64,000 bases of DNA. It comes from an uncultured Clostridia bacterium (lineage in GTDB: Bacteria; Bacillota; Clostridia; TANB77; CAG-508). Positions 4,479-57,213 of this stretch are shown one piece after another (the stretch's first letter is position 1; every line of letters begins with the position of its first letter). The position numbers and the translations under genes were made by a program. The stretch spans positions 109,195 to 173,194 of the forward strand of contig CAKOVX010000001.1 in the NCBI GenBank assembly GCA_934122155.1, written 5' to 3'. A model generated the notes under the pieces. That model was not told the origin of the DNA. It saw nothing but the letters and a program-made list of their open reading frames with translations, and made no database searches.

Positions 4479-5453
4479 TTATAAATACAAATCTTTATTT
4501 ATTTTATACCATTTTACAAAATTTTCAATACCTTCTTTAAAAGAAGTTTTTGGTTCATAACCTATTAGCTCTTTTGCCTTTGATACATCTGCAAAAGTTC
4601 TTTCAACATCACCTGGTTGCATAGGTAATTGATTTATTTTTGGTTCTTTTCCTAATGCTTCTCCAATTGTTTGTATCATTTCTTTTAATGTTACTGGTGA
4701 TGAATTTCCTAAATTTAAAATTTCATAAACATTTGAATTGTTTTCAACATAGCTTATTGATTTAATTACTCCGTCTACAATGTCATCAATATATGTATAA
4801 TCTCTTGATGTTGAACCGTCTCCAAACATGGGTATTTCTTTATCTTCTAACATTAATCTTGTAAATTTATTTATTGCTAAGTCAGGTCTTTGCTTTGGAC
4901 CATATACTGTAAAAAATCTAAGCATTATAACATTAAAATCAAATAATTTATGATATACATGTGTCATAACTTCATTTGCTTTTTTAGTTGCCGCATATGG
5001 GCTAATTGCAAAATCCACTATCATATCTTCTTTAAATGGTACTGTTTTACAGTTACCATATACACTACTAGATGATGCCATTACCAAATTAGTAATATTA
5101 TGTTTTTTCATTTCTTCTAATATGTTTTGAGTTCCAACACAGTTTACCTCTTGATATAACACTGGATTTTCAATTGATGGTCTAACACCTGCCATTGCAG
5201 CTAAATGTATAACCACATCAATTTTATTTTCATTAAAAACTTCTTTTACAGCTTGTCCGTCTCTAATATCTGTTCTATATAATTTAAAGTTGTCATTTTT
5301 ACTTAGCTCTTTTACATTATTTTCTTTTATGCTTGGATTGTAAAAATCACAAAAGTTATCTATTCCTACAACATTATTTCCTTCTTTTAATAATCTTTCT
5401 GCTAAACTAGATCCAATAAATCCAGCAGCACCTGTAATTAAGTATGTTTTCAT
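4479..5453 (-). CDS. NAD-dependent nucleotide-sugar epimerase (short-chain dehydrogenase/reductase family), probable UDP-glucuronate 4-epimerase
   Basis: ITGAAGFIGSSLAERLL glycine-rich motif and an YxxxK-type fold; sits directly downstream of ugd. Likely start is MKTYLITG (5453), giving a 4-nt overlap with the upstream gene. Specificity is inferred from context. Confidence 0.65.
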   Translation of the reverse strand: MKTYLITGAAGFIGSSLAERLLKEGNNVVGIDNFCDFYNPSIKENNVKELSKNDNFKLYRTDIRDGQAVKEVFNENKIDVVIHLAAMAGVRPSIENPVLYQEVNCVGTQNILEEMKKHNITNLVMASSSSVYGNCKTVPFKEDMIVDFAISPYAATKKANEVMTHVYHKLFDFNVIMLRFFTVYGPKQRPDLAINKFTRLMLEDKEIPMFGDGSTSRDYTYIDDIVDGVIKSISYVENNSNVYEILNLGNSSPVTLKEMIQTIGEALGKEPKINQLPMQPGDVERTFADVSKAKELIGYEPKTSFKEGIENFVKWYKINKDLYL

Positions 5454-30843: not shown

Positions 30844-32910
30844 TTATATTCCTCCCTCAATTATATTAGTAATAATGTTTTCGATATTTTCATCTATTAT
30901 TTCAACTTTATCTGTTCCTTGAGATGATGGCTGTTGTTTTGTTTCACTCTCTGTATCTTTTAGCTTTAGTTCACTCACCAATTTTAATGTTTCAAGGTCA
31001 TTTACTTTTATTGCAGTTTCTGATACTGTATATAAATTATTATCTATATATAAGCCTCTTAAAAGCTTACTATTGCTATAATAATATGTTGCTTTTGCCT
31101 TTTCATGTGTTATAACGCCTTTTAATTTAAAGCCATCTTGCACATTTATGTTATATACAAAATATCCTTCTGCTATATATGGTTTACTATATTTCAAGTA
31201 ATTTCTTGTCATAATTTCATAATTATTTGATGCAGTTATTTCAAAGTTTTCTTTATAATTATTTACAGGTATTGCTATCAATGATTTTTCTTTTGAGAAT
31301 AATAACGCTTTTGGGTTTGTTAGTATTGCTGATGTTGTTCTGCTATCTCCTATTACTACACTTGAAACTTGAATTGGATTGCTTACATTTGAAACATTAA
31401 ATAAAGCCATTTTCATTCCCACTATTTTAGTTGTTGTCGAAATCACTCTTCCACTTGAATTTCTATTTATTGTTTCTTTGGTTTCCATTCCAATTCCAAT
31501 TATATAATTTTCATCATATGGGTGTAAATAAGTACTATATCCTGGTATCTTTAATTTTCCTAATACCTTTGGATTTGTTTCATCACTTAAGTCCATTACA
31601 AATAGTGGGTCCACAGTTTTATATGTTACGAAATAAACTTTATCTCCTATAAACCTTGAAGAATACATTTTCTCACCTTTTGCAACATTTTCTGATTCTC
31701 CTATTTGTTTCAAATTTTCATCAAGTATTGCTATTCTTGAGCCTTTATCTCCGTATAAAGCTATTCTTAAATGACCATCTTTCTCATCTAAAGAATATTG
31801 GTTTATGGTCTCTCCGTTTAATTTAGCTTTTGTTTTGTAATTTACATCTCCATTTTTATTCATATCAAATTTGTATATTTCTGTATAGTATCCACTATTA
31901 TTTCTATTACCATCAACTATTCCAAATACTCCCTTTATTCCAAATAGTGCCCAAATACCAATAGTGTTATATTTACGTTTTTCATTTAACAAATATATGG
32001 CATTTTTAGATACATACGCATTTGATATACTCATTAAATATGAGTCTAACTTTACTTCTGCTGTTTCATTATTCAAATCAACAATTGATATTAAAGTTTG
32101 TTTTTGTGTTTTTACATCTTTTAAGTATTTTATTTTATCAACAGAAAGTTCTTTTTCTGTATTGTCTTCTTTATATGCCACAACAACTTCATCATCTTCT
32201 TTTCTTAATGAACCTGATGAAATTACATACAAAGTATTATCTATACATCTTGAAGTATAATATGGTTGATACATTTCATAGCTCTTAGTTAGCACAGGAT
32301 TCTCTCTTGAAGTAATATTGTATATTTTTACCATTGTATTTGTTTTACTATCATAATAGTACAACATATTAGTTTGACTAACTACTGTTGATATTACTAC
32401 TAATTTATCTTTATATAATATCATATCTTCTGGTACATCATTATCATTTGACTTTATAGTAGCTGCTATTTTAGGTTCATTTGGATTTCTTACATCTGTT
32501 ATTATCACGTCATTTTCAGAAATTGAATAGATATAATTTCCATCTGTTTTTATAATATCTGCTTCATCTACATTTTCAACTTGTATATTTGTTGTTGAAT
32601 ATTCTTTACTAGAAGTTGAGTAATTTTTACTAGAATCTACACTACTTGTGAGTCCTGAAGTAATCGTCCCAGAACTTTTCATATCATAGTCCAAGTAACT
32701 ATCATAGTAGAATAAACTAAATGGCATAGCTATAATTCGAATTAACTTTTCTTTTAACTCAGTGTCCTCTCCTTGGTATATCCTTAGCAACTCTTTTTTT
32801 GACTCTATTGTTTTTAATTCTGCTTCATTCTTATGCATCATTGCAATTACTAGCGTAACTATTACTATCAGAATTAATATTGCAACAAATATCTTTAATC
32901 CCTTTTTCAT
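30844..32910 (-). CDS. Secreted/membrane-anchored beta-propeller domain protein
   Basis: N-terminal signal anchor; Ser/Thr-rich linker; the long C-terminal region has repeated blade-like hydrophobic/turn periodicity. Family assignment is tentative. Confidence 0.35.
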   Translation of the reverse strand: MKKGLKIFVAILILIVIVTLVIAMMHKNEAELKTIESKKELLRIYQGEDTELKEKLIRIIAMPFSLFYYDSYLDYDMKSSGTITSGLTSSVDSSKNYSTSSKEYSTTNIQVENVDEADIIKTDGNYIYSISENDVIITDVRNPNEPKIAATIKSNDNDVPEDMILYKDKLVVISTVVSQTNMLYYYDSKTNTMVKIYNITSRENPVLTKSYEMYQPYYTSRCIDNTLYVISSGSLRKEDDEVVVAYKEDNTEKELSVDKIKYLKDVKTQKQTLISIVDLNNETAEVKLDSYLMSISNAYVSKNAIYLLNEKRKYNTIGIWALFGIKGVFGIVDGNRNNSGYYTEIYKFDMNKNGDVNYKTKAKLNGETINQYSLDEKDGHLRIALYGDKGSRIAILDENLKQIGESENVAKGEKMYSSRFIGDKVYFVTYKTVDPLFVMDLSDETNPKVLGKLKIPGYSTYLHPYDENYIIGIGMETKETINRNSSGRVISTTTKIVGMKMALFNVSNVSNPIQVSSVVIGDSRTTSAILTNPKALLFSKEKSLIAIPVNNYKENFEITASNNYEIMTRNYLKYSKPYIAEGYFVYNINVQDGFKLKGVITHEKAKATYYYSNSKLLRGLYIDNNLYTVSETAIKVNDLETLKLVSELKLKDTESETKQQPSSQGTDKVEIIDENIENIITNIIEGGI

Positions 32911-32985
32911 ATATATACTCCTTTATTTTCTTATACTTATAGAATATACTAATATAGAAAATAAGTCAATTCACTTATCATTTTT

Positions 32986-33576
32986 TTAAAAATATTTACT
33001 TAATATTAATTCATAAGCTTTTTTTACATCTTTTTCTTCTGTTAAATTAATACCTGTATTTTTTATTTCATTAAACATATTATTTTTTGTCTCATTAATT
33101 TCATCTAATGACTTTCCTTCAAAATTCTTAGTATTTTCATATTCAATTAGTGTTCCTAAATTTTCAACGTCTTGAAAAGCATATTCTACTTTTTCTTTGC
33201 TATACACTATTACTTTATATTTTACTCTTATAAGTTCTTCAAATCCTAAGTGTTCAAATAAATCTTTAGCTTTTTCTAAGTCGTTACACTTCAAATCTAT
33301 CTTTTGTTCTGATATGACATCGCCTTTTTTATCAATCTCTTTATTTTTATATGTAATCTTTTTTATTTCTTTGTTTCTTAATTTTAAATTTCTTAATAAT
33401 ACTGAATTTTTTAAAATGTTCTGAATATTATCCTTATTTAACTCTTTCATTTTTGATGTCATATATAAATCATTTATTTCACTTTCTCTAATCTTTTTGA
33501 ATCCTTGTATTTCTAATTTTCTTATAGCACTTTGCATATTTTCATTTAATCTTACTGTTATTTCAATTTGTTTCAT
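32986..33576 (-). CDS. CYTH-like (CyaB/thiamine-triphosphatase, triphosphate tunnel) domain protein
   Basis: 196 aa; N-terminus MKQIEITVRLNE resembles the E-x-E-x-K opening strand of CYTH proteins. Assignment is weak. Confidence 0.35.
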   Translation of the reverse strand: MKQIEITVRLNENMQSAIRKLEIQGFKKIRESEINDLYMTSKMKELNKDNIQNILKNSVLLRNLKLRNKEIKKITYKNKEIDKKGDVISEQKIDLKCNDLEKAKDLFEHLGFEELIRVKYKVIVYSKEKVEYAFQDVENLGTLIEYENTKNFEGKSLDEINETKNNMFNEIKNTGINLTEEKDVKKAYELILSKYF

Positions 33577-33621
33577 AATATAATCACTCCTATTCTATTA
33601 AAGTGATTATATAACAAAAAG

Positions 33622-33658
33622 GAGAATTTTAAAAGTAAAATTCTCCTTCTTCATTCAA
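33622..33658 (-). terminator. Rho-independent terminator downstream of the GreA-like gene
   Basis: AAGGAGAATTTT/AAAATTCTCCTT 12-bp stem followed by a T-run on the minus strand. Confidence 0.7.
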
Positions 33659-33670
33659 AACTATTAAGTT

Positions 33671-34135
33671 TTAAATTTTTTCTATTGACTTAATAGTAAT
33701 TTTCATACCATTAAAATCAATTAACTCATTAATATGTTTATCAATAAGTGCCTTTGCTACTGGTGCAGCAGCCGATATTATATCATTGTCTAAATCCGAT
33801 TCATTATCTCCTAAAATAGTTAATGTCTCAGTTTCTCCATCAATATCATATACAACCTTTGAGCCAGGAATAACTTTTGAACCATCAAATGATTTAAAGA
33901 ATTCACATTCTTCAATTATCATACAATCATGCATTCTTTTATAAAGTTTTTCCTTTTCAGCTGGTAAAGTATACATAGCTTTTACACGTAGTTCCATAAA
34001 TTCAGGGTTTTCTCTTAAATCGTTATCTCTTTTTGCACTTTCTCCCATCTTTCTTTGTGTATCAACAATCTTTTGATCTATTGCTTGATATTCTTCACAA
34101 AGCTTTTCATATCCTTTTTTAGAAATCAATTCCAT
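33671..34135 (-). CDS. GreA/GreB family transcript cleavage factor-like protein
   Basis: 154 aa; an N-terminal coiled coil with acidic tip (DNDLRENPEF) and a C-terminal FKBP-like region (ISAAAPVAKALIDKHINELIDFNG) parallel the Gre factor architecture. Confidence 0.55.
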   Translation of the reverse strand: MELISKKGYEKLCEEYQAIDQKIVDTQRKMGESAKRDNDLRENPEFMELRVKAMYTLPAEKEKLYKRMHDCMIIEECEFFKSFDGSKVIPGSKVVYDIDGETETLTILGDNESDLDNDIISAAAPVAKALIDKHINELIDFNGMKITIKSIEKI

Positions 34136-34248
34136 CTAGCATTCCTCCTAATATTGTTCATTTCTAAGTTGTTTTCTTACTTTAATAAGAATTTTTCCGT
34201 AGTTATTTTGGCCATCATTATTCGGTCCGCACCCCCAATAGTTTTCTT

Positions 34249-35333
34249 TCACCGTTGCTTCAACAATTTCTGCGCAGGATACCCTGCAATCTGAAGTGCA
34301 GAAATATATGCATTTGCCATAGGCAAAATTTCCCCTATTACATAATCATATTTATTCTGCTGTCCATTTGACTTGTATCTGTTAGCCCTTTCCCTACAAA
34401 TATTCAGTACACTATATACATCTTTCCAAGTAGCAGTTTCAAATTTATCAAGGTTTTTTAACCCTTTAGTCTTTTTGAATTCAATAATGCTATTTACCAA
34501 AAATCTTTCTAAAACAACATAGCCAGAAGTTTCTCTGATTTCTGTTTTTGGATAAATGCACATACCATAATTGCCGTCTTCAGTTATACTAGGATTAATT
34601 GCATAATACTCCCCATCATAATTGCTCATAAGGTAAATCTCTGCAATTTTATAATCCTGTAAACTTCCAATAATAAACTTATGACATGTTTTTTTAAGTT
34701 TTTCAACTGTTTCAAATGCTTCATATGTTTCAATACTATAAAACTCTGTTGCATCCTCAGTTAAAGTAATCTGATGGTCAAATGGATCTTTAATATGAGC
34801 TTCCTTCATCTCAACATTACACTGCTTAGAAATAAATAAATAATTTCCTACACAGATAATTTTATGACTCAAGACTTCAGTTTCGAATACTCTTTCGATT
34901 TCAACTAAAGGCTTATATCTGAGTTCCACACACATCTTTCTACTTCCTGCACCGCACGTCTCATAATATGGCTTATAAATTTCTAGCAAATTAGCCATAT
35001 CAAGTGTGTAGTCGAACTGACTATATGCGGCATTTTTACTACACCAACCAACTTCATAAGGAGTAAATGAAAGTCTCACTCCTCCAAGTCCATTTTCATG
35101 AAGAAGATTAATTCTCTTATGCATGTCATTTAGTTCTTCATTATATCTGCTATAACTCACAGTTGAAATTCTGGTTGTTACGCCTAATTCTTTAAATGCC
35201 AATCTGATAAAAGAATCCAGATATGGATAATTTCCAATATCATTATCTAGATACGGAAAAATTACTCCTTCATCATAATCCTGCTCACAAAGATTCACTT
35301 CATCCGTTAAAAGATACTTATTTTTAATCATAA
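34249..35333 (-). CDS. Hypothetical protein (361 aa), no recognised family
   Basis: Probable start MIKNKY at 35333, preceded by AAGGAAAGAGG. The track ORF extends to 35424 without an RBS. Cys-containing segments (CGAGSRKMC, ICVGNYLFISKQC) but no radical-SAM CxxxCxxC. Confidence 0.5.
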
Positions 35334-35457
35334 TGTCTACCTCTTTCCTTAATTGTTTTAAATAGTTCTCCAACATTTCTCTGAATATCTGCACTATCAT
35401 TATTAAAAACAATAGTTGGACCATTTTCTAAAGAAAAAAACAGTAGTAAAGTCAATA

Positions 35458-35503
35458 AACTTTACTACTGTAAGAAATGGTGCCTCGAACTGGAATCGAA
35501 CCA
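35458..35503. repeat. attL-type direct repeat: 46-bp copy of the tRNA-Phe 3' end
   Basis: TGGTGCCTCGAACTGGAATCGAACCAGTGACACAGGGATTTTCAGT, identical to 43188-43233. Confidence 0.85.
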
Positions 35504-35828
35504 GTGACACAGGGATTTTCAGTTTTTAAATACCTAATCGAATAGCTTCTCCTCTTTAATAATTAAACTAACTTGCGAGAATGCTTTTGCACCTTTTTAT
35601 AAATATATTATATAAAATTATATGCCGAGAAAATCATTGCCAATGAGTTAAAATGTGATATAATATTGACCTTTTGGGTTGTTTTTTCTTTTCTGCCCGC
35701 AAGGAAAACTATTCATATTTTTAGAGGCTCGTTGGCAATGAGGAATTGGAATATATTTTTATATGATATATTGTACTTTGTGCAAAGGGCTGGGATGGTT
35801 TTTGGGATTTTGTTTAACATTCTCGCTT

Positions 35829-36461
35829 TTAATATATTAGTAAGTCTTGTTGTAATAATTTTTTTATTTCTTCTTTGTCATAATTATTACTTACTTCTAT
35901 TCTATGTAAGGGTATTCCTACTTTTTCAAACAATTCATTCTTAAATTCATCAGCTTTTTGTGCTTTTTTAGTGTTATGTGTATAGTCGTCTAATTCTATA
36001 CAACATAAAATTTTGTAACTTGTATTTTTTACTATTGTATAATCTATATTTCTTGATTTTATTCTGTTTCTATCTCTATAATTATTATCAATTACTTTTA
36101 TTATTCTTTCTAGGTCCACTTGTGGAAAAATTGTCATATCTAGTTCATCTGTTATTTTTTTTAATTCAATATAAAATTTTCTTTCTGTTCTTGTCATTAT
36201 ATATTCTTTTGCAATATATTTTTCTAAATCTTCATTATAAGTATTATAACTTGTCGCAATATTATTTTCTATGTTATTATTGTATTCTTTTTGTAAATTC
36301 AAATATCTATTATAAGATTGGTCTTCTAGATTTTGATATTCATTATAATTTTGCGTCATTTCGTTTTTTATTTGATTTTCTTTAGTTGGAGAAAAAGCAA
36401 TATCTACTATTAGTATTAAAAATAATGTTATTATTATAATTGCTAATATTAAAATAAACAT
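35829..36461 (-). CDS. Membrane-anchored DUF2726-like (restriction-endonuclease-fold / NERD-like) protein; cargo of the element
   Basis: N-terminal TM, then MTRTERKFYIELKK...FPQVDLERII...IDYTIVKN...ILCCIELDD.TH...KADEF...LFEKVGIPLHRI, matching the DUF2726 pattern. Confidence 0.5.
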   Translation of the reverse strand: MFILILAIIIITLFLILIVDIAFSPTKENQIKNEMTQNYNEYQNLEDQSYNRYLNLQKEYNNNIENNIATSYNTYNEDLEKYIAKEYIMTRTERKFYIELKKITDELDMTIFPQVDLERIIKVIDNNYRDRNRIKSRNIDYTIVKNTSYKILCCIELDDYTHNTKKAQKADEFKNELFEKVGIPLHRIEVSNNYDKEEIKKLLQQDLLIY

Positions 36462-36464
36462 TTT

Positions 36465-36689
36465 TTATTCCTTTCTTTTGTATGGTCTAATTTCATCTGT
36501 TAGTTCTAGAATATAATCCGTAGAAGTTTTATAAAATATTGCTAATTGTTTTATATATTCTGCTGGAATATCTCTCTTTCCTGTTTCGTATAAGCCATAT
36601 TGTTGTCTTGTTATTTTTAATTCTTCTGCAATATTTATTTGTTTTAATTCTGTATCTTCTCTTAAATCTTTTAATCTTTTTAAATACAT
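36465..36689 (-). CDS. XRE-family helix-turn-helix transcriptional repressor (prophage maintenance)
   Basis: 74 aa; QINIAEELKITRQQYGLYETGKRDIP is a classic Cro/C1 HTH; divergent from the structural genes. Confidence 0.8.
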   Translation of the reverse strand: MYLKRLKDLREDTELKQINIAEELKITRQQYGLYETGKRDIPAEYIKQLAIFYKTSTDYILELTDEIRPYKRKE

Positions 36690-36736
36690 ATTTTTTACCT
36701 CTTTTTAAATTTTATCATGCATTTGTTTAAATTCTC

Positions 36737-36765
36737 TTGACAAGCATTTATTTGAATGCTATAAT
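36737..36765 (+). promoter_or_regulatory. Consensus sigma-A promoter (TTGACA-17-TATAAT) with a palindromic operator in the spacer
   Basis: TTGACA 36737-42, TATAAT 36760-65. The spacer holds the dyad GCATT-N6-AATGC (36744-36759), with a half-site-like repeat downstream (GCATTCAAACAGATGC). Confidence 0.65.
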
Positions 36766-36817
36766 TCTTTCAGTAAGGCATTCAAACAGATGCTATTTAT
36801 AAAGGAGAGTAAAAAAA

Positions 36818-37105
36818 ATGAAATTAAAAGATGAATTTAAGTTTTTAAAAATTGACAGTATCAGAAGAAAAAATGCTGAAGAGCTTCCAGCAGATGAACA
36901 ATATTTTTATGTTGTGAATGTGCTTGATAAAGAAAATAACCCAGTAAGATTTTTCAGTTTTGATAACAAATTAAATAGTCAGCTTACAAAAGATATACAA
37001 AGTGGCAAAGTTAAAGGTTTACAAAATTGCTTAATAGATTTTGAATTAAAATTCACTAATAATAATTGGAACGTTTCACTTGAAAATGTAACATTCCAAT
37101 ATTAA
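36818..37105 (+). CDS. Hypothetical 95-aa protein; candidate ssDNA-binding protein (gpV analogue) by position and size
   Basis: First gene after the divergent promoter; small and hydrophilic; no motif-level support. Confidence 0.3.
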   Translation: MKLKDEFKFLKIDSIRRKNAEELPADEQYFYVVNVLDKENNPVRFFSFDNKLNSQLTKDIQSGKVKGLQNCLIDFELKFTNNNWNVSLENVTFQY

Positions 37106-37377
37106 ATTTATTATTAAAGTATTGACAACAATCCATACTTTAGCAGTTACAAGAGTAATAGTTCATTAGTGAACTGTTACTCGCGTAGCCCCGCATATTA
37201 TTCGTGATAAACCGGCGAAACGGTTTAGAAAATAGCCCACCGGCGCATGAGGTGGTGCAACCTCTCTACATGCTATCTCCTTACTTAGTTGTAGTAAATA
37301 TTTTATTCATGCGTGCTTTTAAATTTGTGCATAACAAATTTTACTAAAGATAAAGAGAACAGAAAGGAGAAATTCAT

Positions 37378-37554
37378 ATGGAAGAAGTCTCAAATGAAGT
37401 TGTAAATGAAGTAGTTAATAATGTAGTCATGAATGAACTAGAATTGCTAACTGCAATTCATAGTCAATTAGGTGTATTTACATCATTTCTATTATTCTTT
37501 ATAGTCGTCATTTTATGCTACTTCTCATATAAGTTTTTCAATATGTTCTTTTAG
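37378..37554 (+). CDS. Small coat-like protein (58 aa, acidic N-terminus, single TM, basic C-terminus)
   Basis: MEEVSNEVVNEVVNNVVMNELELLTAIHSQLGVFTSFLLFFIVVILCYFSYKFFNMFF; AAAGGAGA RBS 7 nt upstream; not in the >=60-aa ORF track. Confidence 0.45.
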   Translation: MEEVSNEVVNEVVNNVVMNELELLTAIHSQLGVFTSFLLFFIVVILCYFSYKFFNMFF

Positions 37555-37582
37555 ATTACGTAAGAGAAAGGAGCATGTGAAT

Positions 37583-37765
37583 ATGGAATCAGGAGCAACT
37601 GCAACAGCAACATCTGTTTTATCAAAAATAGTAACTGGTGATATGTTAGCTGGTGTTTTAACAGAAATTACTAGCTTATTACCAATAGTTATACCTGTAA
37701 TGATAGGCTTTATTGCTATCAGAAAAGGAATTGGCTTCTTATCAAGCATTTTACACTCTGCATAA
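37583..37765 (+). CDS. Major-coat-like protein (60 aa, amphipathic N-terminus, TM, basic C-terminus)
   Basis: MESGATATATSVLSKIVTGDMLAGVLTEITSLLPIVIPVMIGFIAIRKGIGFLSSILHSA; AAAGGAG RBS 9 nt upstream of the ATG at 37583. Confidence 0.5.
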   Translation: MESGATATATSVLSKIVTGDMLAGVLTEITSLLPIVIPVMIGFIAIRKGIGFLSSILHSA

Positions 37766-37849
37766 TGTCCCTATTTTTATTGCAGTTTGTAGAAAAAGGA
37801 ACAGCAATAAAAAAGCTGTTCCTTATTTTTATTTAGAAAGGTTTTACAA

Positions 37850-39154
37850 ATGACAAAAAAATTTATATATATTTTGCTATTTATTTTAGCTTTTATAGTA
37901 ATACTTAGTATTCAAAATAAAGTAGAAGCAGTTTTGTTTACTGACGTTAATGATAATACCTATAATATTGATACTAATGATGATTTTTTTGAAGATTATT
38001 ATATTGTTTATCAATATTATGGGTCTACTGATTTTGTTGCTGTTTTTACTTCTACTTCTGAATTTTACTTAAGAAAAGAGTCAGGTGAGACATACTTTTT
38101 TATTAAAAGTTCTTCTGATTTTAAAGCAAGATATTATTATGCTGATGGAACTAAGGGAGACGTTAAAGATATGGGTAGTGCCTATTCATGTCCGATTTAT
38201 AAAGATTATCAAATAATTTATAACAACCATGATTTAAAACACACTTCTGGTAATATTATTTTTCCAGCTTCAGTCAAAGACCTTAATACATATTTGAATT
38301 TTGAATCTGGTGGCTTGATTTATAGCATATATGGTTTAGGTCTTACAATTCGTGACTATATTGCTGTTTTTAAATCCGATGGTGTTGCAGTTATTTTTAT
38401 GAGTGATGATCACCCAACTTATAGATATGAAAATAATACATATTATTTACATACTACTTCTTCAACGAGTATTGATATTTTTGATTTTAAAACTAATAAA
38501 TTAGTTTATGGAGATTATAGTAAATATTCTACTGGCGGTTTAGATATGGCTTTTAAAAAGGAACAACTTATTTTTTGTAATTTTGTTTTATATGATGAAG
38601 ATGGCTATGTTGTTTTTAATCCTATGGGTACTCGTTTATCAGATAATAAAAAAGGAAGTGACGCTACCGGCAATTTTGTCGAAGGCGGCTCAGTTAATGG
38701 AAATTCTTACTTAGATGATTATATTACTGGTAGTGATTCTGATTATAATGGTTCTGGTAAACATGGTTCTGATACTATATCTGGTGGTTTTAACCGTGTT
38801 TACAATAATTTTGGTTTTACTGAAGATGTTAAAAAGAATGTTAATGGAATGGTAGATGTTATTACTAATACTAAAGAGGTTCCGAAGTTTCAAATTAATG
38901 TTAATTCTAAATATTATAAAGGAACTTTAACTATTGTAGATTTAAGTTGGTATGCCCCATATAAGGATATGGGCGACAATGTTATTTGTATATTTGCTTA
39001 CTTAACATTTTTATGGCGAATATTTATTAAATTGCCTGACATTATTAGAGGTGCTGGAGCTAGTTCTTATGCTTCTAACATGTTAGGAGATATTGAGGCA
39101 TTTAGAAAAACAGGTTTTGGCCGTTCTTCTAGTCCTAGAGATAAAACATTTTAG
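37850..39154 (+). CDS. pIII-like minor coat / adsorption protein (secreted, C-terminal membrane anchor)
   Basis: Signal peptide MTKKFIYILLFILAFIVILSIQNKVEA; Gly/Ser-rich segments; C-terminal TM NVICIFAYLTFLWRIFIKL; 434 aa; no enzymatic motif. Confidence 0.5.
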   Translation: MTKKFIYILLFILAFIVILSIQNKVEAVLFTDVNDNTYNIDTNDDFFEDYYIVYQYYGSTDFVAVFTSTSEFYLRKESGETYFFIKSSSDFKARYYYADGTKGDVKDMGSAYSCPIYKDYQIIYNNHDLKHTSGNIIFPASVKDLNTYLNFESGGLIYSIYGLGLTIRDYIAVFKSDGVAVIFMSDDHPTYRYENNTYYLHTTSSTSIDIFDFKTNKLVYGDYSKYSTGGLDMAFKKEQLIFCNFVLYDEDGYVVFNPMGTRLSDNKKGSDATGNFVEGGSVNGNSYLDDYITGSDSDYNGSGKHGSDTISGGFNRVYNNFGFTEDVKKNVNGMVDVITNTKEVPKFQINVNSKYYKGTLTIVDLSWYAPYKDMGDNVICIFAYLTFLWRIFIKLPDIIRGAGASSYASNMLGDIEAFRKTGFGRSSSPRDKTF

Positions 39155-39171
39155 AAAGGTGTGTGTGTTAA

Positions 39172-39435
39172 ATGGTTGAAACAATTTTTAAAATTGCTGT
39201 TTGGGGTATTATTATAGCTATTGTTATTGGTCTTTTAGGTACTGTTGTTTTTAAATGGTCGCTAGATACTAGCCCATATCTTCAAGGTTTGACTAATTTT
39301 TTACATGTTATTTATTACGTTTTGCCTATTGCAAAACTTAGCCCTATTATTGTTATATTTGTAGGTACTATGGTGTTTAGAATTATTATTAGTATTATTA
39401 GTACTATATGGAATCTTATTCCTATTGGGAAGTAG
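39172..39435 (+). CDS. pVI-like small membrane protein
   Basis: 87 aa, 3 TM helices, immediately after the pIII-like gene. Confidence 0.4.
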   Translation: MVETIFKIAVWGIIIAIVIGLLGTVVFKWSLDTSPYLQGLTNFLHVIYYVLPIAKLSPIIVIFVGTMVFRIIISIISTIWNLIPIGK

Positions 39436-39605
39436 TGGTGTTTATGTTTATTTTATTATTAATATTTTTTATAGTTTTTATAATTAGTTTTGTTTATTTA
39501 TTTTATAAAATAAAAGTTATTGAGGAAGATATTGAGGCATTGTATGACACATATTTTACGTTTGTAGAGAATTCTTTTAGAAAGGATGATAAAGATGTGG
39601 CTTAG
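39408..39605 (+). CDS. Small membrane protein (start probably at the ATG at 39443)
   Basis: Single TM FMFILLLIFFIVFIISFVYLFY followed by an acidic tail; overlaps its neighbours. Confidence 0.35.
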   Translation: MESYSYWEVVVFMFILLLIFFIVFIISFVYLFYKIKVIEEDIEALYDTYFTFVENSFRKDDKDVA

Positions 39606-40470
39606 TTCTTTATTTAGTGTTTTAAAGGCATTTTTGTCTATTTTAAAGATACCTTTTTATATTATTTCAATTATTATTGTTTTATTTACTATTTTATATT
39701 GTATCTGGTTTATTTATTATACTTGTAAAGGTATGAGACTGAAAAAAGGTTCTAGAGTTTTTGTAAAAAAAGATGGGTTTTTTAAAAAATTGTTTTTTAA
39801 ATTACCTCAAAGAATGGTTTTAGATAATTTTGATAGAGACCCCGACTTTTTTAGGTATCAAGGTTTAGTTATTTTTGAAGGTAGACAAGGCTCTGGAAAA
39901 ACTATAAGTATGATAGAGTATGCTAGAACTATGCAGCAAGAGTACCCTAAATCGCTTTGTACTACTAACTTAGCTTATACTGGAGAGAATGAACCCCTTC
40001 TTGATTGGAGAATGTTGTTAAGATATAAAAATGGTATTTATGGTGTAATTGTTTGTATGGACGAGCTTCAGAACTGGTTCAGTTCTAATGATAGTAAGAA
40101 CTTTCCTCCAGAAATGCTCACAATTATTACCCAGAACAGAAAGAATAGACGTATAATTTTAGGTACTTCTCAAAATTTTTATTTACTAGCCAAAGCCATC
40201 AGGTCACAGGCAACCGAAGTACGTCGATGTTCGACGTTCTTCGGTGCCTTGACACTGGTTAGAAAATTTGAGCCTATTCTTGATTCTGAAGGAAATGTTC
40301 AGGAATACAAAAGACGTGGATGGTATTTTTTTGTGCATGATAAAGAATTACGTGAGAGTTATAATACATTTAAAGTAATTGAGCGAGCTACAAAAGTTGG
40401 TTTTCAAGATGTACCAAAGATAGAAGAAAACAATGTTTATAATTTAATTAATGTGAAAGGAAAAAAATAA
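39586..40470 (+). CDS. Zot/pI-like P-loop assembly ATPase
   Basis: N-terminal TM; Walker A FEGRQGSGKT; Walker B VCMDELQNW; length and architecture match the zonula-occludens-toxin N-terminal (pI) domain. Confidence 0.65.
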   Translation: MIKMWLSSLFSVLKAFLSILKIPFYIISIIIVLFTILYCIWFIYYTCKGMRLKKGSRVFVKKDGFFKKLFFKLPQRMVLDNFDRDPDFFRYQGLVIFEGRQGSGKTISMIEYARTMQQEYPKSLCTTNLAYTGENEPLLDWRMLLRYKNGIYGVIVCMDELQNWFSSNDSKNFPPEMLTIITQNRKNRRIILGTSQNFYLLAKAIRSQATEVRRCSTFFGALTLVRKFEPILDSEGNVQEYKRRGWYFFVHDKELRESYNTFKVIERATKVGFQDVPKIEENNVYNLINVKGKK

Positions 40471-40472
40471 TT

Positions 40473-40673
40473 ATGTATGATTTTTTTGATAATTTTTTAG
40501 ATATATGTTTATTTCTTGCTTTATCTGTGGTTTTATTTTCTACTCTTTCTTTTTTTATTGATTTTGATTCTAATAATTTAGAAGAGCGTGTTGAAGTATT
40601 AGAAAAATACCATGAAAATGAGTATAATTGTCTTTATTGTAATAATGTTATTGATAATGTAAAGGAGATTTAG
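40473..40673 (+). CDS. Hypothetical small membrane protein
   Basis: 66 aa, one TM; C-terminus has a CxxC pair (CLYCNNV). Confidence 0.3.
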   Translation: MYDFFDNFLDICLFLALSVVLFSTLSFFIDFDSNNLEERVEVLEKYHENEYNCLYCNNVIDNVKEI

Positions 40674-40677
40674 TTTT

Positions 40678-40887
40678 ATGAAGAATAAAAATTTTTTATA
40701 TATGATTTTATATGGTTTAGGTATTTGTGCTTTAACTGTTGTATTTAATTTAATTTTTAACATGTATCAGGTAACTACATTACATAGAGTTGTTTGTATT
40801 ATAACTATTAGTATTTCGACTGCATTATATATTCCGTTTTACAGATTATTTTTTGCAGAATTGCATAAGCCTAGAAAGGGGATTTAG
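40678..40887 (+). CDS. Hypothetical small membrane protein
   Basis: 69 aa, two TM helices. Confidence 0.3.
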   Translation: MKNKNFLYMILYGLGICALTVVFNLIFNMYQVTTLHRVVCIITISISTALYIPFYRLFFAELHKPRKGI

Positions 40888-40889
40888 AA

Positions 40890-41159
40890 ATGGAAGAAAA
40901 AAATTTAGATTTTAATATTTTTTACTTTCTTCCTCCTTCTATTATGTTTTTTGGTTTAAAAAAGATGAAAGGAATTATTATGGAAAATTGTTGTTTGAAA
41001 GATTTAGATAAAAAAGATGTTTTTGATTATTTGATTTGTAATAGAGTTTTTATTGATAGTTTATCTGATGAAGAAATAAAAAAATATAAAAAATATTTTG
41101 TTGCTATCAACAGATCAAGATTTAAAAAGAAAATTTTTAAATTTTTTAAAATTCTATAA
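40890..41159 (+). CDS. Hypothetical small basic protein
   Basis: 89 aa, Lys-rich C-terminus. Confidence 0.3.
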   Translation: MEEKNLDFNIFYFLPPSIMFFGLKKMKGIIMENCCLKDLDKKDVFDYLICNRVFIDSLSDEEIKKYKKYFVAINRSRFKKKIFKFFKIL

Positions 41160-41197
41160 ATAAAAAGTTGGAGGGTTCTTAGTAACACCCTCCGAGA

Positions 41198-42274
41198 GTG
41201 ACACTAGTGACACTTTTTGATTTTTTAATAGGGGTTTTTGATATGATAGATACAATTAAAATTTATACTATGATAGATAAAAATATTTATAACAAAATAT
41301 ATAATAATTCTATCATTAAATCAAGTTATAATAAAAAGGATGGCGAAATTTATTACGAAATTGTAAATGACAAATTAGAAGGCTCTTATAGTTCTAGTTT
41401 GTCGGTTCGTGTTGGTTCTGGTGCTAAATATAAATTTGTTAATATGTATTATTTAGAGGTTGAAGGTTCTTATCATAAAATTATGAATGGCTTTAATTCT
41501 CATAATGGCTATTATAATTTGCAGAGCATTGTAAAATGGCTGATAGGTGCTGTTGAGAATGTTTATAATATTAAATTACCTACTTTGCGACATTGGTTTT
41601 TACAACGAATCGACATTGCTCTTTGTTTTGATTTAGGTACAAATGAAGAGGTTAGAAGATATATAAATAATTTGTCTCTTTGTTCTTTTCCCAGAAGAAA
41701 CAATATAAAACATTATCAGGATGAAAGTATTTATTGTTCTGGTACCTCTTCTACTTTGAAAATTTATAATAAAATGTTAGAATTTAAAAAACATGATATG
41801 AAAAAAATGTTTAATCTAAATTTTAATATTGATAATTATTTAGATAAAATTAAAGGATTTGTAAGGTTTGAATGTGAAATTAAGAAAAAAAAATTAGAAA
41901 ATATTTATTGTAAGAAATATATTAGAGTTAGAAACGTTAATTATAATGATTTTTATGAAGTTTGGAAGTGTGAATTTATGAAGTTATTAAATATGTTTGA
42001 AAGTGATTTGACTATTGTTAGAAATAAAGAAGATATTAAAAGAAGATTATATACTTGTTATAGTGAAAGAAGAGCTAGTGTTTTGTATGCTTTTTATAGT
42101 TCTATTATCTTAGACGGTATTACAGAAGTAAAAAAAACTGTTCCCAAAAGAACTTATTATAGATATATCAAAGATTTGAAAGCTGTTAATATTGATTTAT
42201 CTCAAAAATATACAGTTTCAGCTGAACGTGATACAGTAGATTTTAACCCATTTGAGTGGAAAGAGGTTGTATAA
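41198..42274 (+). CDS. Rolling-circle replication initiation protein (phage gene II / Rep_trans-like)
   Basis: RIDIALCFD and VRFECEIKKKK motifs and a conserved Tyr region (TLKIYNKM) resemble filamentous-phage/plasmid replication initiation factors. Alternative start MIDTIKIY at 41243. A hairpin plus AGTGACACT direct repeats lie just upstream. Confidence 0.5.
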   Translation: MTLVTLFDFLIGVFDMIDTIKIYTMIDKNIYNKIYNNSIIKSSYNKKDGEIYYEIVNDKLEGSYSSSLSVRVGSGAKYKFVNMYYLEVEGSYHKIMNGFNSHNGYYNLQSIVKWLIGAVENVYNIKLPTLRHWFLQRIDIALCFDLGTNEEVRRYINNLSLCSFPRRNNIKHYQDESIYCSGTSSTLKIYNKMLEFKKHDMKKMFNLNFNIDNYLDKIKGFVRFECEIKKKKLENIYCKKYIRVRNVNYNDFYEVWKCEFMKLLNMFESDLTIVRNKEDIKRRLYTCYSERRASVLYAFYSSIILDGITEVKKTVPKRTYYRYIKDLKAVNIDLSQKYTVSAERDTVDFNPFEWKEVV

Positions 42275-43171
42275 ATGAAATGTTCTGAAGTACTAGATAA
42301 ATTTATTACAAATCAAAAAGTTATTGGAAATACTAAAGAAACAATTGAATATTATAAAAAAAGAATTGGGTATTTTATTGATTTTGTGAATGATAAAGAT
42401 ATTGATAATGTTGTTATAGATGATTATAATTCTTATGCAATTTATTTAATAAATAAGATTACTGATAAAGGTACTAACTTATCAAGTGCAACTATAAAAA
42501 CTACTTTAAATGCTTCGAAAATATTTTTAAAATATGCTTATGATAATAAATATATGATTAGTGATGTTTATAAAAATATAAAGCCATATAAACAAGTTAA
42601 AAAAACTATTGTTGTTTTATCTGCTGAAGACATAAATAAATTGTTATCTTCTCAAAATGAATTTACTATTATTGGTCTAAGAAATTTGTTAGCTATAAGT
42701 TTGATGTTAGACGCTGGTCTTCGTGTTAGCGAAGTAGTGAATTTGAATGTTGATGATGTTAGTAAAGAACTAGGTGTTATTAAAGTTTTTGGAAAAGGTA
42801 AAAAAGAAAGATTAGTTCCATTAACAGATAGTATAATAAAATATTATGATAAGTATGTGTTTTTAGCTTCTTTGTATTCAGGTCCTTTATTTTTAGATAG
42901 TGATACAGGTCTTCGAATGACTTCTTCTGGAATTAGTCAGATACTTCGTAGAATTAAGAAAGAGCAACATTTTATGAAATTACACCCTCATTATTTAAGA
43001 CATACATTTGCAACCTTATTTTTAGTAAATGGTGGTGATCCAGTACATTTACAATTAATTTTAGGACATACTACCTTATATATGACAGAACAATATTTAC
43101 ACTTAGCAAATCAAATGACATTACAGAAGCAAAAAAAATTTAGTCCCCTTACAAATATAAAAAAGCCCTAG
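42275..43171 (+). CDS. Tyrosine recombinase/integrase (XerC/XerD-like, phage integrase family)
   Basis: R...HxxR...Y catalytic residues (LRVSE..., HPHYLRHTFAT, LGHTTLYMTEQY). Ends 17 nt from tRNA-Phe. Confidence 0.8.
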   Translation: MKCSEVLDKFITNQKVIGNTKETIEYYKKRIGYFIDFVNDKDIDNVVIDDYNSYAIYLINKITDKGTNLSSATIKTTLNASKIFLKYAYDNKYMISDVYKNIKPYKQVKKTIVVLSAEDINKLLSSQNEFTIIGLRNLLAISLMLDAGLRVSEVVNLNVDDVSKELGVIKVFGKGKKERLVPLTDSIIKYYDKYVFLASLYSGPLFLDSDTGLRMTSSGISQILRRIKKEQHFMKLHPHYLRHTFATLFLVNGGDPVHLQLILGHTTLYMTEQYLHLANQMTLQKQKKFSPLTNIKKP

Positions 43172-43187
43172 AAATAGGACTTTTTTT

Positions 43188-43263
43188 TGGTGCCTCGAAC
43201 TGGAATCGAACCAGTGACACAGGGATTTTCAGTCCCTTGCTCTACCAACTGAGCTATCGAGGC
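43188..43263 (-). tRNA. tRNA-Phe (GAA)
   Basis: Reverse complement GCCTCGATAGCTCAGTTGGTAGAGCAAGGGACTGAAAATCCCTGTGTCACTGGTTCGATTCCAGTTCGAGGCACCA folds as a cloverleaf with anticodon GAA. The 3' 46 nt is duplicated at 35458. Confidence 0.9.
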
Positions 43264-56706: not shown

Positions 56707-57071
56707 GGGGATGTATTTGGTTTCGACAATATCCTAGAAGTATTGATAGCGAGTAGTGGATCTCTCACTTGGCCACTTTAATAATGTGAGAAATTAAAAA
56801 TAAACGCTGATAATAGAGAATTAGCATACGCTGCCTAATTAATGGCGCGTCATCTTACTTTAGGTGCCCACGCTTAGAGATTAAGGTGTCAAATTAGTGG
56901 GAAACAAAACTATTTTTAGTTATGAAAATAGTGGGTACTCTTAAATAACTACCTTTTTAATAAATTTGTTTATTGTGTTATTATTTAGGGAATCTTTACA
57001 ATAAACTGCACTCGGAGAAGTTGATATGGAAAGAATATTGGACAGGAGTTCGACTCTCCTCATCTCCACCA
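56707..57071 (+). ncRNA. ssrA: tmRNA (SsrA)
   Basis: GGGGATGTATTTGGTTTCGAC 5' tRNA-like start and ...GGACAGGAGTTCGACTCTCCTCATCTCCACCA 3' T-arm/acceptor/CCA. The internal tag ORF ends ...GCT GCC TAA (...LAYAA*). A TTGTTT-17-TGTATAAT promoter lies just upstream. Confidence 0.85.
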
Positions 57072-57138: not shown

Positions 57139-57213
57139 AGGGGTATAGTGTTAATGGTAGCACATCGGTCTCCAAAACCGCCTGTGAGGGTTCGAATCCT
57201 TCTACCCCTGCCA
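57139..57213 (+). tRNA. tRNA-Trp (CCA)
   Basis: AGGGGTATAGTGTTAATGGTAGCACATCGGTCTCCAAAACCGCCTGTGAGGGTTCGAATCCTTCTACCCCTGCCA. Confidence 0.9.

Follow-up and report, generated by a model that had tools for sequence, protein, structure and literature searches.

We analysed a 64,000-nt stretch of contig CAKOVX010000001.1 (hereafter the window) from an uncultured Clostridia bacterium of the GTDB lineage CAG-508 (assembly GCA_934122155.1, contig positions 109,195 to 173,194), in which a 7,710-bp element of 14 genes is lodged in a tRNA-Phe gene. This element, at window positions 35478–43233, is very probably an integrated temperate filamentous prophage of the inovirus type (order Tubulavirales, in the broad sense) residing in a monoderm gut Firmicute, and the copy in the window probably still makes particles. 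An inovirus prophage had been proposed here in an original prediction made from the sequence alone, and that reading is now supported by a match of its morphogenesis ATPase to the Zot family, by a match of its replication protein to the gpII family, and by a direct repeat that bounds integrase-bearing mobile cargo. Within the known diversity of filamentous phages, the element is an ordinary addition to the gut Firmicute inovirus group that has been catalogued since 2019.

The insertion site lies in a tRNA Val-Asp-Phe cluster on the minus strand, where ARAGORN places an intact tRNA-Phe(GAA) at 43188–43263 (Rfam tRNA, 74.1 bits; Rfam detected nothing besides tRNAs). Its 3′-terminal 46 nt (43188–43233), which take in the CCA end, the T arm and the anticodon loop with the anticodon itself, recur exactly once more in the window at 35478–35523, with a start-to-start spacing of 7,710 nt. 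No additional copy was found in the window even at three mismatches, and none of 100 shuffled sequences yielded any match, so the repeat did not arise by chance. The perfect repeat had been recognized in the original prediction, which gave the right copy correctly and set the left copy at 35458–35503, 20 nt short of its true position. We designate the left copy attL (no strand applies) and the right copy, which forms the phage-supplied 3′ part of the minus-strand tRNA, attR; the same repeat flanks related prophages in two loci of our collection of relatives (L002 and L004). An intact tRNA at one end and an orphan 3′ fragment at the other bear out the proposal of site-specific integration that regenerates the tRNA.

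The terminators on either side tell the same history. An intrinsic terminator on the minus strand (35440–35471, a 14-bp stem followed by a T-run) sits in host DNA just outside the element, 6 nt beyond the orphan tRNA fragment; because it is placed directly beyond the attL fragment, the original attB must have been an intact tRNA-Phe followed by this native terminator of the host tRNA operon. At the other end, in the gap that separates the integrase stop codon from the tRNA 3′ end, a terminator scan of the minus strand located a phage hairpin with both A- and T-runs (43159–43186) that is terminator-like in both directions, and as predicted from these runs it can end the tRNA operon one way and the integrase transcript the other. 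This hairpin substitutes for the displaced native terminator, and the same layout, a terminator followed by a tRNA fragment, is found in the attP of a circular relative (L006). The junctions predicted from this arrangement are ...AATAGGACTTTTTTT + 46-nt att + TTTTAAATACCTAATCG... for attP and ...CTTTACTACTGTAAGAAA + 46-nt att + CCCTTGCTCTACCAACTGAGC... for attB. The insert also stands apart from its surroundings in orientation: it is the sole plus-strand block (12 of its 14 genes lie on that strand) among host genes that, at 150 aa or longer, all read on the minus strand in the window, and its GC skew runs counter to the host's, with the sign flipping exactly at the insert borders.

All open reading frames (ORFs) named in the original prediction are present at the coordinates it gave, all genes of the element are intact, and nearly all are preceded by strong Shine-Dalgarno (SD) sequences. 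The central gene encodes a pI/Zot-family morphogenesis ATPase of 291 aa (39595–40470, plus strand; ORF from 39586), a protein that is the sole marker conserved across Tubulavirales (Roux et al. 2019, PMC6813254). It matches the Pfam Zot family (PF05707) at 22.7 bits against a curated cut-off of 20.3, over profile positions 79–146, which cover the ATPase core only, and 13 of 14 aligned relatives likewise have Zot as their best-scoring family. A tblastn search of 50,697 phage records with this protein returned inovirus genomes only, 19 annotated ones, the best being bajarodino virus 76 (PQ006119.1; 43.5% identity, 2e-45), whose counterpart is itself annotated as Zot. Walker A (GRQGSGKT) and Walker B (VCMDE) motifs are present, and a transmembrane (TM) segment at residues 22–40 lies ahead of Walker A, with no C-terminal extracytoplasmic domain, a topology common to all relatives checked, including the published bajarodino virus 76. 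The label “Zot” denotes the shared ATPase core only, and no toxin function should be inferred from it; the enterotoxic C-terminal region of Vibrio cholerae Zot falls outside the part matched here.

Replication is assigned to a 343-aa rolling-circle initiator of the gpII family (Rep; 41243–42274, plus strand; ORF open from 41198), which matches the Phage_CRI/G2P N-terminal family over nearly its full length (PF05144, 52.6 bits, 6.6e-14, profile positions 1–222 of 232), TIGR01629 rep_II_X (60.2 bits, cut-off 29) and PHROG 702 (2.3e-31), together with a weak G2P_X_C match and a direct tblastn match to phage f1 gene II/X at 8e-4. For both pI and Rep the ORFs had been correctly delimited, and gene calls in relatives favor the later starts used here (39595 and 41243). 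Sequence searches of the PDB with Rep and with a pI profile gave nothing meaningful. Immediately downstream, a Xer-like tyrosine integrase of 298 aa (42275–43171, plus strand; PF00589, 1.5e-31; PHROG 1, 1.5e-46) abuts the tRNA as originally described, with 16 nt between the end of its gene and the 3′ end of the tRNA; the translation shows the R...HxxR...Y residues, and Xer equivalog models match it below their cut-offs. In Pfam, PHROGs and NCBIfam, no passing match concerned a capsid, terminase, portal or tail family; the sole such matches were weak P-loop cross-matches of pI. This agrees with the absence of capsid, terminase and tail genes noted earlier, and no secretin was matched in Pfam or PHROGs. 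With its short, closely spaced genes, the element also falls within the size range of about 5–15 kb typical of Tubulavirales.

The remaining plus-strand genes are read as structural and accessory candidates, mostly from their size, position and hydrophobicity. Three genes of the element were missing from the earlier list: a 95-aa gene (36818–37105), a 53-aa TM gene (39444–39605) and a 210-aa DUF2726 gene (35829–36461). The first of these, on the plus strand, encodes a modeled OB-fold protein that is probably a single-stranded DNA (ssDNA) binder and a functional analogue of gpV or RstB. Further along the operon, two products of 58 aa (37378–37554, TM 31–49) and 60 aa (37583–37765, TM 28–46) each have one TM helix, an acidic N-terminal part (very acidic in the former) and a short basic C-terminus (R/K-rich in the latter), both genes have the SD sequence AAAGGAG and are kept at these lengths in relatives, and neither product matches any coat-protein model in Pfam, PHROGs or NCBIfam. 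The 58-aa protein is a candidate minor (tip) coat protein, and the 60-aa protein, encoded directly upstream of the adsorption-protein gene, would by that position be the better candidate for the major coat.

The adsorption protein itself, a pIII-like terminal protein of 434 aa (37850–39154, plus strand; TM 5–23 and 378–396), has a signal/anchor helix, a beta-rich N-terminal half, a G/S/N/D-rich linker and a C-terminal region of about 130 aa with a TM anchor. Across an alignment of 25 homologues the N-terminal half is divergent beyond recognition and the C-terminal 130 residues are nearly invariant, and its nearest non-identical homologue shares 60% identity over 72% of the length, compared with relatives at 93–95% for pI and the OB-fold protein. 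This is the pattern expected of a receptor-binding protein under diversifying selection; the protein has no detectable sequence or fold similarity to known proteins. It is followed on the same strand by an 87-aa polytopic protein in a pVI-like position (39172–39435; TM 8–26 and 46–64 and a hydrophobic C-terminus, giving two or three TM segments; an 87/88-aa gene in relatives) and by the 53-aa single-TM protein (TM 2–20), whose gene overlaps the pI start and recurs in L004, L005, L006 and L104. Between pI and Rep lie three small plus-strand genes (40473–41159) that had been described as tiny membrane ORFs, which holds for the clear single-TM products of 66 and 69 aa and fails for the 89-aa product, a soluble protein with a basic C-terminus and a length that varies among relatives; none of the three has a family match.

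Upstream of this operon, the divergent repressor candidate and consensus promoter recognized in the original prediction are both present and would form a switch. A 74-aa XRE-family HTH repressor candidate (36465–36689, minus strand; HTH_3, 1.2e-8; PHROG 8 transcriptional regulator, 3.8e-13) is separated from the OB-protein gene by a 128-nt gap that holds the switch region (36716–36794, plus strand), in which a perfect extended sigma-70 promoter, TTGACA-17-TG-TATAAT at 36737–36765, is directed into the phage operon. Three 16-bp palindromes of the form GCATT-N6-AATGC begin at 36719, 36744 and 36778, the perfect copy (36744) occupying the promoter spacer, and three of the four sites with at most one mismatch in the window fall in the switch region. 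The cluster has a classical operator arrangement to which, we infer, the XRE protein would bind.

Between the OB-protein gene and the 58-aa gene, a 272-nt gap (37106–37377, plus strand) has the highest GC content of the element, folds stably as ssDNA (z = −4.35), and can be aligned even among relatives that share only about 80% identity in their coding regions. It contains three hairpins, the first with a 13-bp stem (37153–37182), the second with a 7-bp stem, TAAACCG/CGGTTTA (37208–37227), showing one compensatory C:G to G:C change, and the third (37237–37255) with a short stem and a conserved 9-nt loop, GGCGCATGA, at 37242–37250. The stem of hairpin 3 occurs in four fully compensated versions (CACC/GGTG, CGTC/GACG, CGCT/AGCG, TTTC/GAAA), the fourth coming from a covariance-model search that located it in Clostridium sp. 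CAG:780, equally far upstream of pI, and 96% of the cells in its alignment are paired against 30–48% in slid-partner controls, a covariation sample that is small at eight distinct sequences. A scan of 1.2 Mb of related loci with the covariance model of the region picked up a single further instance (L007), and the motif is restricted to the closest clade. Rolling-circle nick sites usually take the shape of a conserved loop on a covarying stem, and we hypothesize that 37106–37377 is the replication origin and/or the packaging signal.

A second structured region, the 305-nt non-coding left end (35524–35828, plus strand), forms a long imperfect hairpin of about 230 nt as ssDNA (−39.1 kcal/mol, z = −5.4) and carries a near-consensus promoter at 35637–35664 on the plus strand (11 of 12 positions, with TG). 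It might, at low confidence, be a minus-strand origin that mimics a promoter. The region is 97.5% conserved in L003, absent in L002 and L004, and has its core deleted in L106; with these losses we downgraded the left hairpin as an essential origin. The promoter points to the 3′ end of the convergent DUF2726 gene and could either drive an antisense or small RNA or form part of such a promoter-mimicking single-strand origin.

Homologues of pI are numerous (1,830 at E ≤ 0.001, the nearest at 94% identity), and relatives document both the spread and the mobility of the lineage. Contigs of the same species from several human gut metagenomes carry an identical element at the identical site (100% over 7,956 nt); the exact element occurs in runs ERR7738595 and ERR7738936 and in the reads underlying ERZ27287205 and ERZ4560332. 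A sister species, with host flanks at about 81% identity, holds a 7,250-bp version with the same gene order in the same tRNA-Phe with the same 46-nt repeat. In a scan of GTDB, at one genome per species, 64 pI loci were found, nearly all in gut Clostridia, including Clostridium sp. CAG:780 (the best relative there, at 67% identity), Lachnospiraceae, Oscillospiraceae and Ruminococcus albus; IMG/VR added 20 relatives, one of which (UViG 3300029567_000337) has 93% pI identity. Four loci of the GTDB scan with Clostridia-type pI at 45–57% identity come from genomes labeled Methanobacteriota archaeon, Muribaculum, Dysgonamonadaceae and Bacteroidaceae (L023, L032, L065 and L067, of which L032 and L065 are short contigs), and these are most likely mis-binned inovirus or Clostridia contigs and not true hosts.

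A view of the mobile form comes from a Logan contig (L006) whose pI is 75% identical to that of the window and whose ends overlap by 30 nt, which suggests a circular molecule of 6,969 nt. Its attP lies between the integrase and repressor genes, where a terminator hairpin precedes a 45-nt stretch of the tRNA-Met 3′ end. In another contig (L005), which encodes an identical pI protein, the same 118 nt are followed by the rest of an intact tRNA-Met, the two diverging exactly at the tRNA fragment boundary, and the pair shows the attR and attP of the design proposed for the window element, at another tRNA. The tRNA-Met-type and tRNA-Phe-type integrases are 46–47% identical, against about 82% nucleotide identity in the remaining genome, so the integrase/att module has been exchanged. 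Circular forms occur in two more distant relatives as well (6,055 and 7,048 nt). A further IMG/VR record (L090; 4,201 nt, 123-nt terminal overlap, 56% pI identity) is apparently a circle of only about 4.1 kb, and represents a deletion derivative or else an inovirus of very small size. Two near-full-length Logan contigs, L103 and L104, were considered as circles and rejected, as they end inside or next to att without terminal overlap.

Taken as a temperate inovirus, the element suggests the following life cycle. The circular double-stranded form would carry an attP made of the terminator hairpin followed by the 46-nt copy of the tRNA-Phe 3′ end, and the phage tyrosine integrase would recombine it with the host tRNA-Phe, such that the phage copy completes the tRNA and the phage terminator ends the operon. 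The original tRNA 3′ fragment and native terminator would thereby be displaced by 7.7 kb, an end result that is visible directly in the window. In the lysogen, the XRE repressor would bind the three GCATT-N6-AATGC operators, one of them within the promoter spacer, and keep the rightward operon silent, and the DUF2726 nuclease-like membrane protein would be accessory cargo expressed from the lysogen side. Upon derepression and excision, the gpII-family Rep would nick the origin, probably in the 37106–37377 hairpin region, and produce ssDNA by rolling-circle replication, which the 95-aa OB-fold protein would coat. The membrane-anchored pI ATPase and small membrane proteins would then extrude the ssDNA through the single membrane, with the DNA-binding protein exchanged for the 60-aa coat protein during extrusion and the 434-aa protein, carrying a fast-evolving receptor-binding domain, capping the filament; a secretin would be neither needed nor encoded.

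Several observations weigh against this interpretation or parts of it. The Zot match of pI is just 2.4 bits over the cut-off, within the ATPase core, and generic AAA families score nearly as high; the coat, pIII-like and pVI-like roles draw on size, position and hydrophobicity, with no family or fold match; and for the 95-aa protein a good OB-fold appears in only one of five AlphaFold models, while a BFVD structure search gave no significant match, an RstB-like protein being among the weak ones. Searches for the excised and uninserted states of the exact element also came back empty: the 72-nt predicted attP junction had no matches in IMG/VR, a 32-nt attL-or-attP pattern retrieved from JGI metagenomes one contig that is another lysogen, of the sister species, and no empty attB turned up, since exact-protein look-ups with flanking genes (391-aa and 360-aa on the left, CtpB on the right) gave lysogens or breaks in the tRNA cluster. 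Finally, the adsorption gene is split into ORFs of 302 and 100 aa in L002 and L004 (8194–9556), although both the window and L003 (436 aa) retain an uninterrupted gene; some copies in the lineage are decaying.

Another possibility is an element of the same origin that is now a fixed, cryptic prophage without particle production, kept perhaps for its DUF2726 cargo or for repressor-mediated immunity, which we consider improbable. It would account for the fact that all contigs found for the host species, from independent samples, carry the element, for the missing circular form and empty site, for the decayed adsorption gene of the sister species and for the absence of attL from L003. Coverage read from contig names in one Hadza assembly points the same way, as a contig with the flank and the left half of the phage stands at 5.08x and the host contig with the other half at 5.17x, near-equal values that give no sign of episomal amplification. 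Yet all 14 genes are intact, the att copies and the promoter are perfect, the SD sequences are strong, close relatives are circular, and the receptor-binding half of the 434-aa protein diversifies fast while pI and the OB-fold protein remain 93–95% identical, as in phages that still infect. It is far less probable that the element is an integrative rolling-circle plasmid or mobilizable island with a membrane P-loop ATPase and no virions. The weak, core-only Zot match, with AAA-type families scoring nearly equally, and the structural genes without homology-based annotation would allow it, but the tblastn search with pI met no plasmid-type partner among its inovirus genomes, Rep belongs to the gene II/X family of filamentous phages, the gene order (DNA-binding, small TM, large anchored, polytopic, ATPase) is that of inoviruses, no relaxase, type IV secretion system or coupling protein was found among the element proteins in Pfam and PHROGs, and circular genomes with this family of pI abound in purified fractions of virus particles (PMC9723715). 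Least credible is that the repeat is a local partial tRNA duplication unrelated to the intervening genes, a reading with nothing in its favor beyond the existence of the repeat. An integrase gene adjoins the tRNA, another species has this cassette together with its repeat, between different flanks in some contigs, and the phage brought both a replacement tRNA 3′ half and a replacement terminator, which therefore rules out simple local duplication; the native terminator stranded at the distal copy, together with the attR and attP forms of the same arrangement at another tRNA in L005 and L006, refutes it.

The inovirus interpretation also places the element among phages that are already described, and the earlier remark that Gram-positive inoviruses are sparsely described is outdated (PMC6813254, PMC9723715, PMC10061712). 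Using a pI homologue together with direct repeats that lie within a tRNA or adjoin an integrase, Roux et al. (2019) recovered thousands of inoviruses, among them families limited to monoderm hosts (PMC6813254), and pig fecal viromes have yielded circular genomes of inoviruses in the hundreds, which carry a B5-type gpI along with rep, ssb and TM structural genes and have Clostridium, Roseburia and Ruminococcus as predicted hosts (PMC9723715). Gut Firmicute inoviruses thus occur in virus-particle fractions (PMC9723715) and are secreted by Enterocloster (PMC10061712). The element shares the pI family of these B5-type phages, as well as a genome within the 4–9 kb range, a TM-then-ATPase pI, Clostridia hosts (predicted for the B5-type phages) and the module order of repressor, ssDNA-binding-like protein, small TM proteins, a gene of about 440–460 aa, a short polytopic protein and pI; the pI of the porcine “Inovirus sp.” records MT1352xx-3xx is 32–37% identical. 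In contrast to bajarodino virus 76 and the porcine records, which are episomal circles with no integrase annotated, it has a tyrosine integrase and a tRNA-Phe att; the Rep of bajarodino virus 76 is shorter, at 250 aa, and encoded ahead of the coat genes, unlike that of the element, and the DUF2726 cargo is specific to a subset of the close clade of the element. By their description, the inovirus prophages of Enterocloster and Hungatella (Burckhardt et al. 2023, PMC10061712) are similar, being 6.5–8.5 kb elements of gut Clostridia with direct repeats, a pI/Zot homologue and 10–16 other ORFs. Secretion of these phages has been shown experimentally in vitro and in mice (PMC10061712), and the proposed biology of the element therefore has precedent, although its own host is uncultured and of much lower GC content (about 27%). 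The GTDB scan returned Lachnospiraceae loci at about 47–54% pI identity and no Enterocloster record.

Resemblance to the classical Ff phages (f1, M13 and fd) is one of plan. Both have a gpII-family Rep, a P-loop pI, structured non-coding regions, the gene order of gV-like, small coat, pIII-like, pVI-like and pI genes, and a pIII plan in which a flexible Gly/Ser-rich linker joins a variable, receptor-binding N-terminal part to a conserved C-terminal part for assembly and anchoring, but the Ff coat, pIII, pVI and gV proteins have no detectable sequence similarity to their counterparts in the element, and Ff phages are neither temperate nor equipped with an integrase. In Ff, pI consists of a cytoplasmic N-terminal ATPase, a TM segment and a periplasmic domain that contacts the pIV secretin, whereas the pI of the element has its TM segment first, no C-terminal domain and no secretin to contact. 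The element is therefore not a strict Ff-type member of the diderm Inoviridae. CTXphi, like the element, is temperate and filamentous, and it too combines a switch of repressor and promoter with a pI of the Zot family; an OB-fold DNA-binding function like that of its RstB is plausible in the element, whose weak BFVD matches include an RstB-like protein. CTXphi has no integrase and integrates through host XerCD at dif, whereas the element brings a tyrosine recombinase of its own and is inserted in a tRNA gene.

The DUF2726 protein (35829–36461, minus strand; PF10881, 1.4e-26) has an N-terminal TM segment at residues 1–19 and a weaker match to the restriction-endonuclease-like family REase_MTES_1575; DUF2726 is classed in the PD-(D/E)XK superfamily (PMC3424549). 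As the gene is present in some close relatives (L002, L103) and not in others (L003, L006), we regard it as accessory cargo on the lysogenic side of the switch. PADLOC returned no defense-system match for this protein, nor for the three genes left of attL.

These three genes occupy 32972–35477, between a beta-propeller gene (30844–32910) and attL, and encode a CYTH-like protein (196 aa), a GreA/GreB-like protein (154 aa) and a 360-aa product without family match. They are missing from the sister species, where the beta-propeller gene lies about 170 nt from attL, and may represent an islet confined to this species or what is left of an older insertion at this tRNA; the window contains no additional att copy. 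At the left junction of the sister species (L002 and L004, 6160–6262; L106, reverse strand, 4953–5055), a 57-nt copy of the phage right end, comprising the integrase 3′ end and the terminator, precedes att and extends the flanking repeat from 46 nt to 103 nt at 96–97% identity. An earlier or tandem prophage may have left it behind, or the phage may have captured its attP region from such a host locus. The near-identical prophages of L002, L003 and L004 share one host flank and differ in the other, with a different left flank and no attL within three mismatches in L003 and a different right flank beyond the tRNA cluster in L004, for which several occupied tRNA Val-Asp-Phe loci, rearrangement between copies and chimeric assembly are all possible explanations. 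Elsewhere in the window, a tmRNA gene with the tag peptide ADNRELAYAA (56707–57071) is followed by tRNA-Trp (57139–57213), both on the plus strand; no sign of an integrated element was seen there, although no search aimed at one was made.

Overall, the element leaves current understanding unchanged, and what novelty remains is at the level of the lineage, in the inverted pI topology with its extra small membrane proteins, the 9-nt-loop hairpin and the DUF2726 cargo. A more speculative reading, which we hold to be doubtful, is that assembly and replication in this clade depart from the Ff scheme, with a TM-first pI working alongside lineage-specific membrane proteins of 53, 66 and 69 aa that may have no counterpart in described inoviruses, a Rep that recognizes a short stem-loop whose invariant 9-nt loop, GGCGCMTGA, is reminiscent of the nonanucleotide origins of CRESS-DNA viruses and unlike the Ff origin, and a DUF2726 protein acting in exclusion or against other phages; if true, the membrane-anchored DUF2726 nuclease would be a new superinfection-exclusion or anti-phage function from a filamentous prophage. 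The pI lineage is widespread in human and animal gut Clostridia, with almost no structural protein of a recognizable family, and filamentous prophages, which are secreted in the gut, can alter host physiology (PMC10061712). In that setting, the element is a clean, fully delimited reference for a temperate Firmicute inovirus, with att sites, terminator replacement, switch, candidate origin hairpins and genes mapped to the base, and it offers testable handles in the covarying 9-nt-loop hairpin as an origin, in the hypervariable N-terminal half of the 434-aa protein as a receptor-binding determinant on a Gram-positive surface, and in the swap of the integrase/att module between tRNA-Phe and tRNA-Met.

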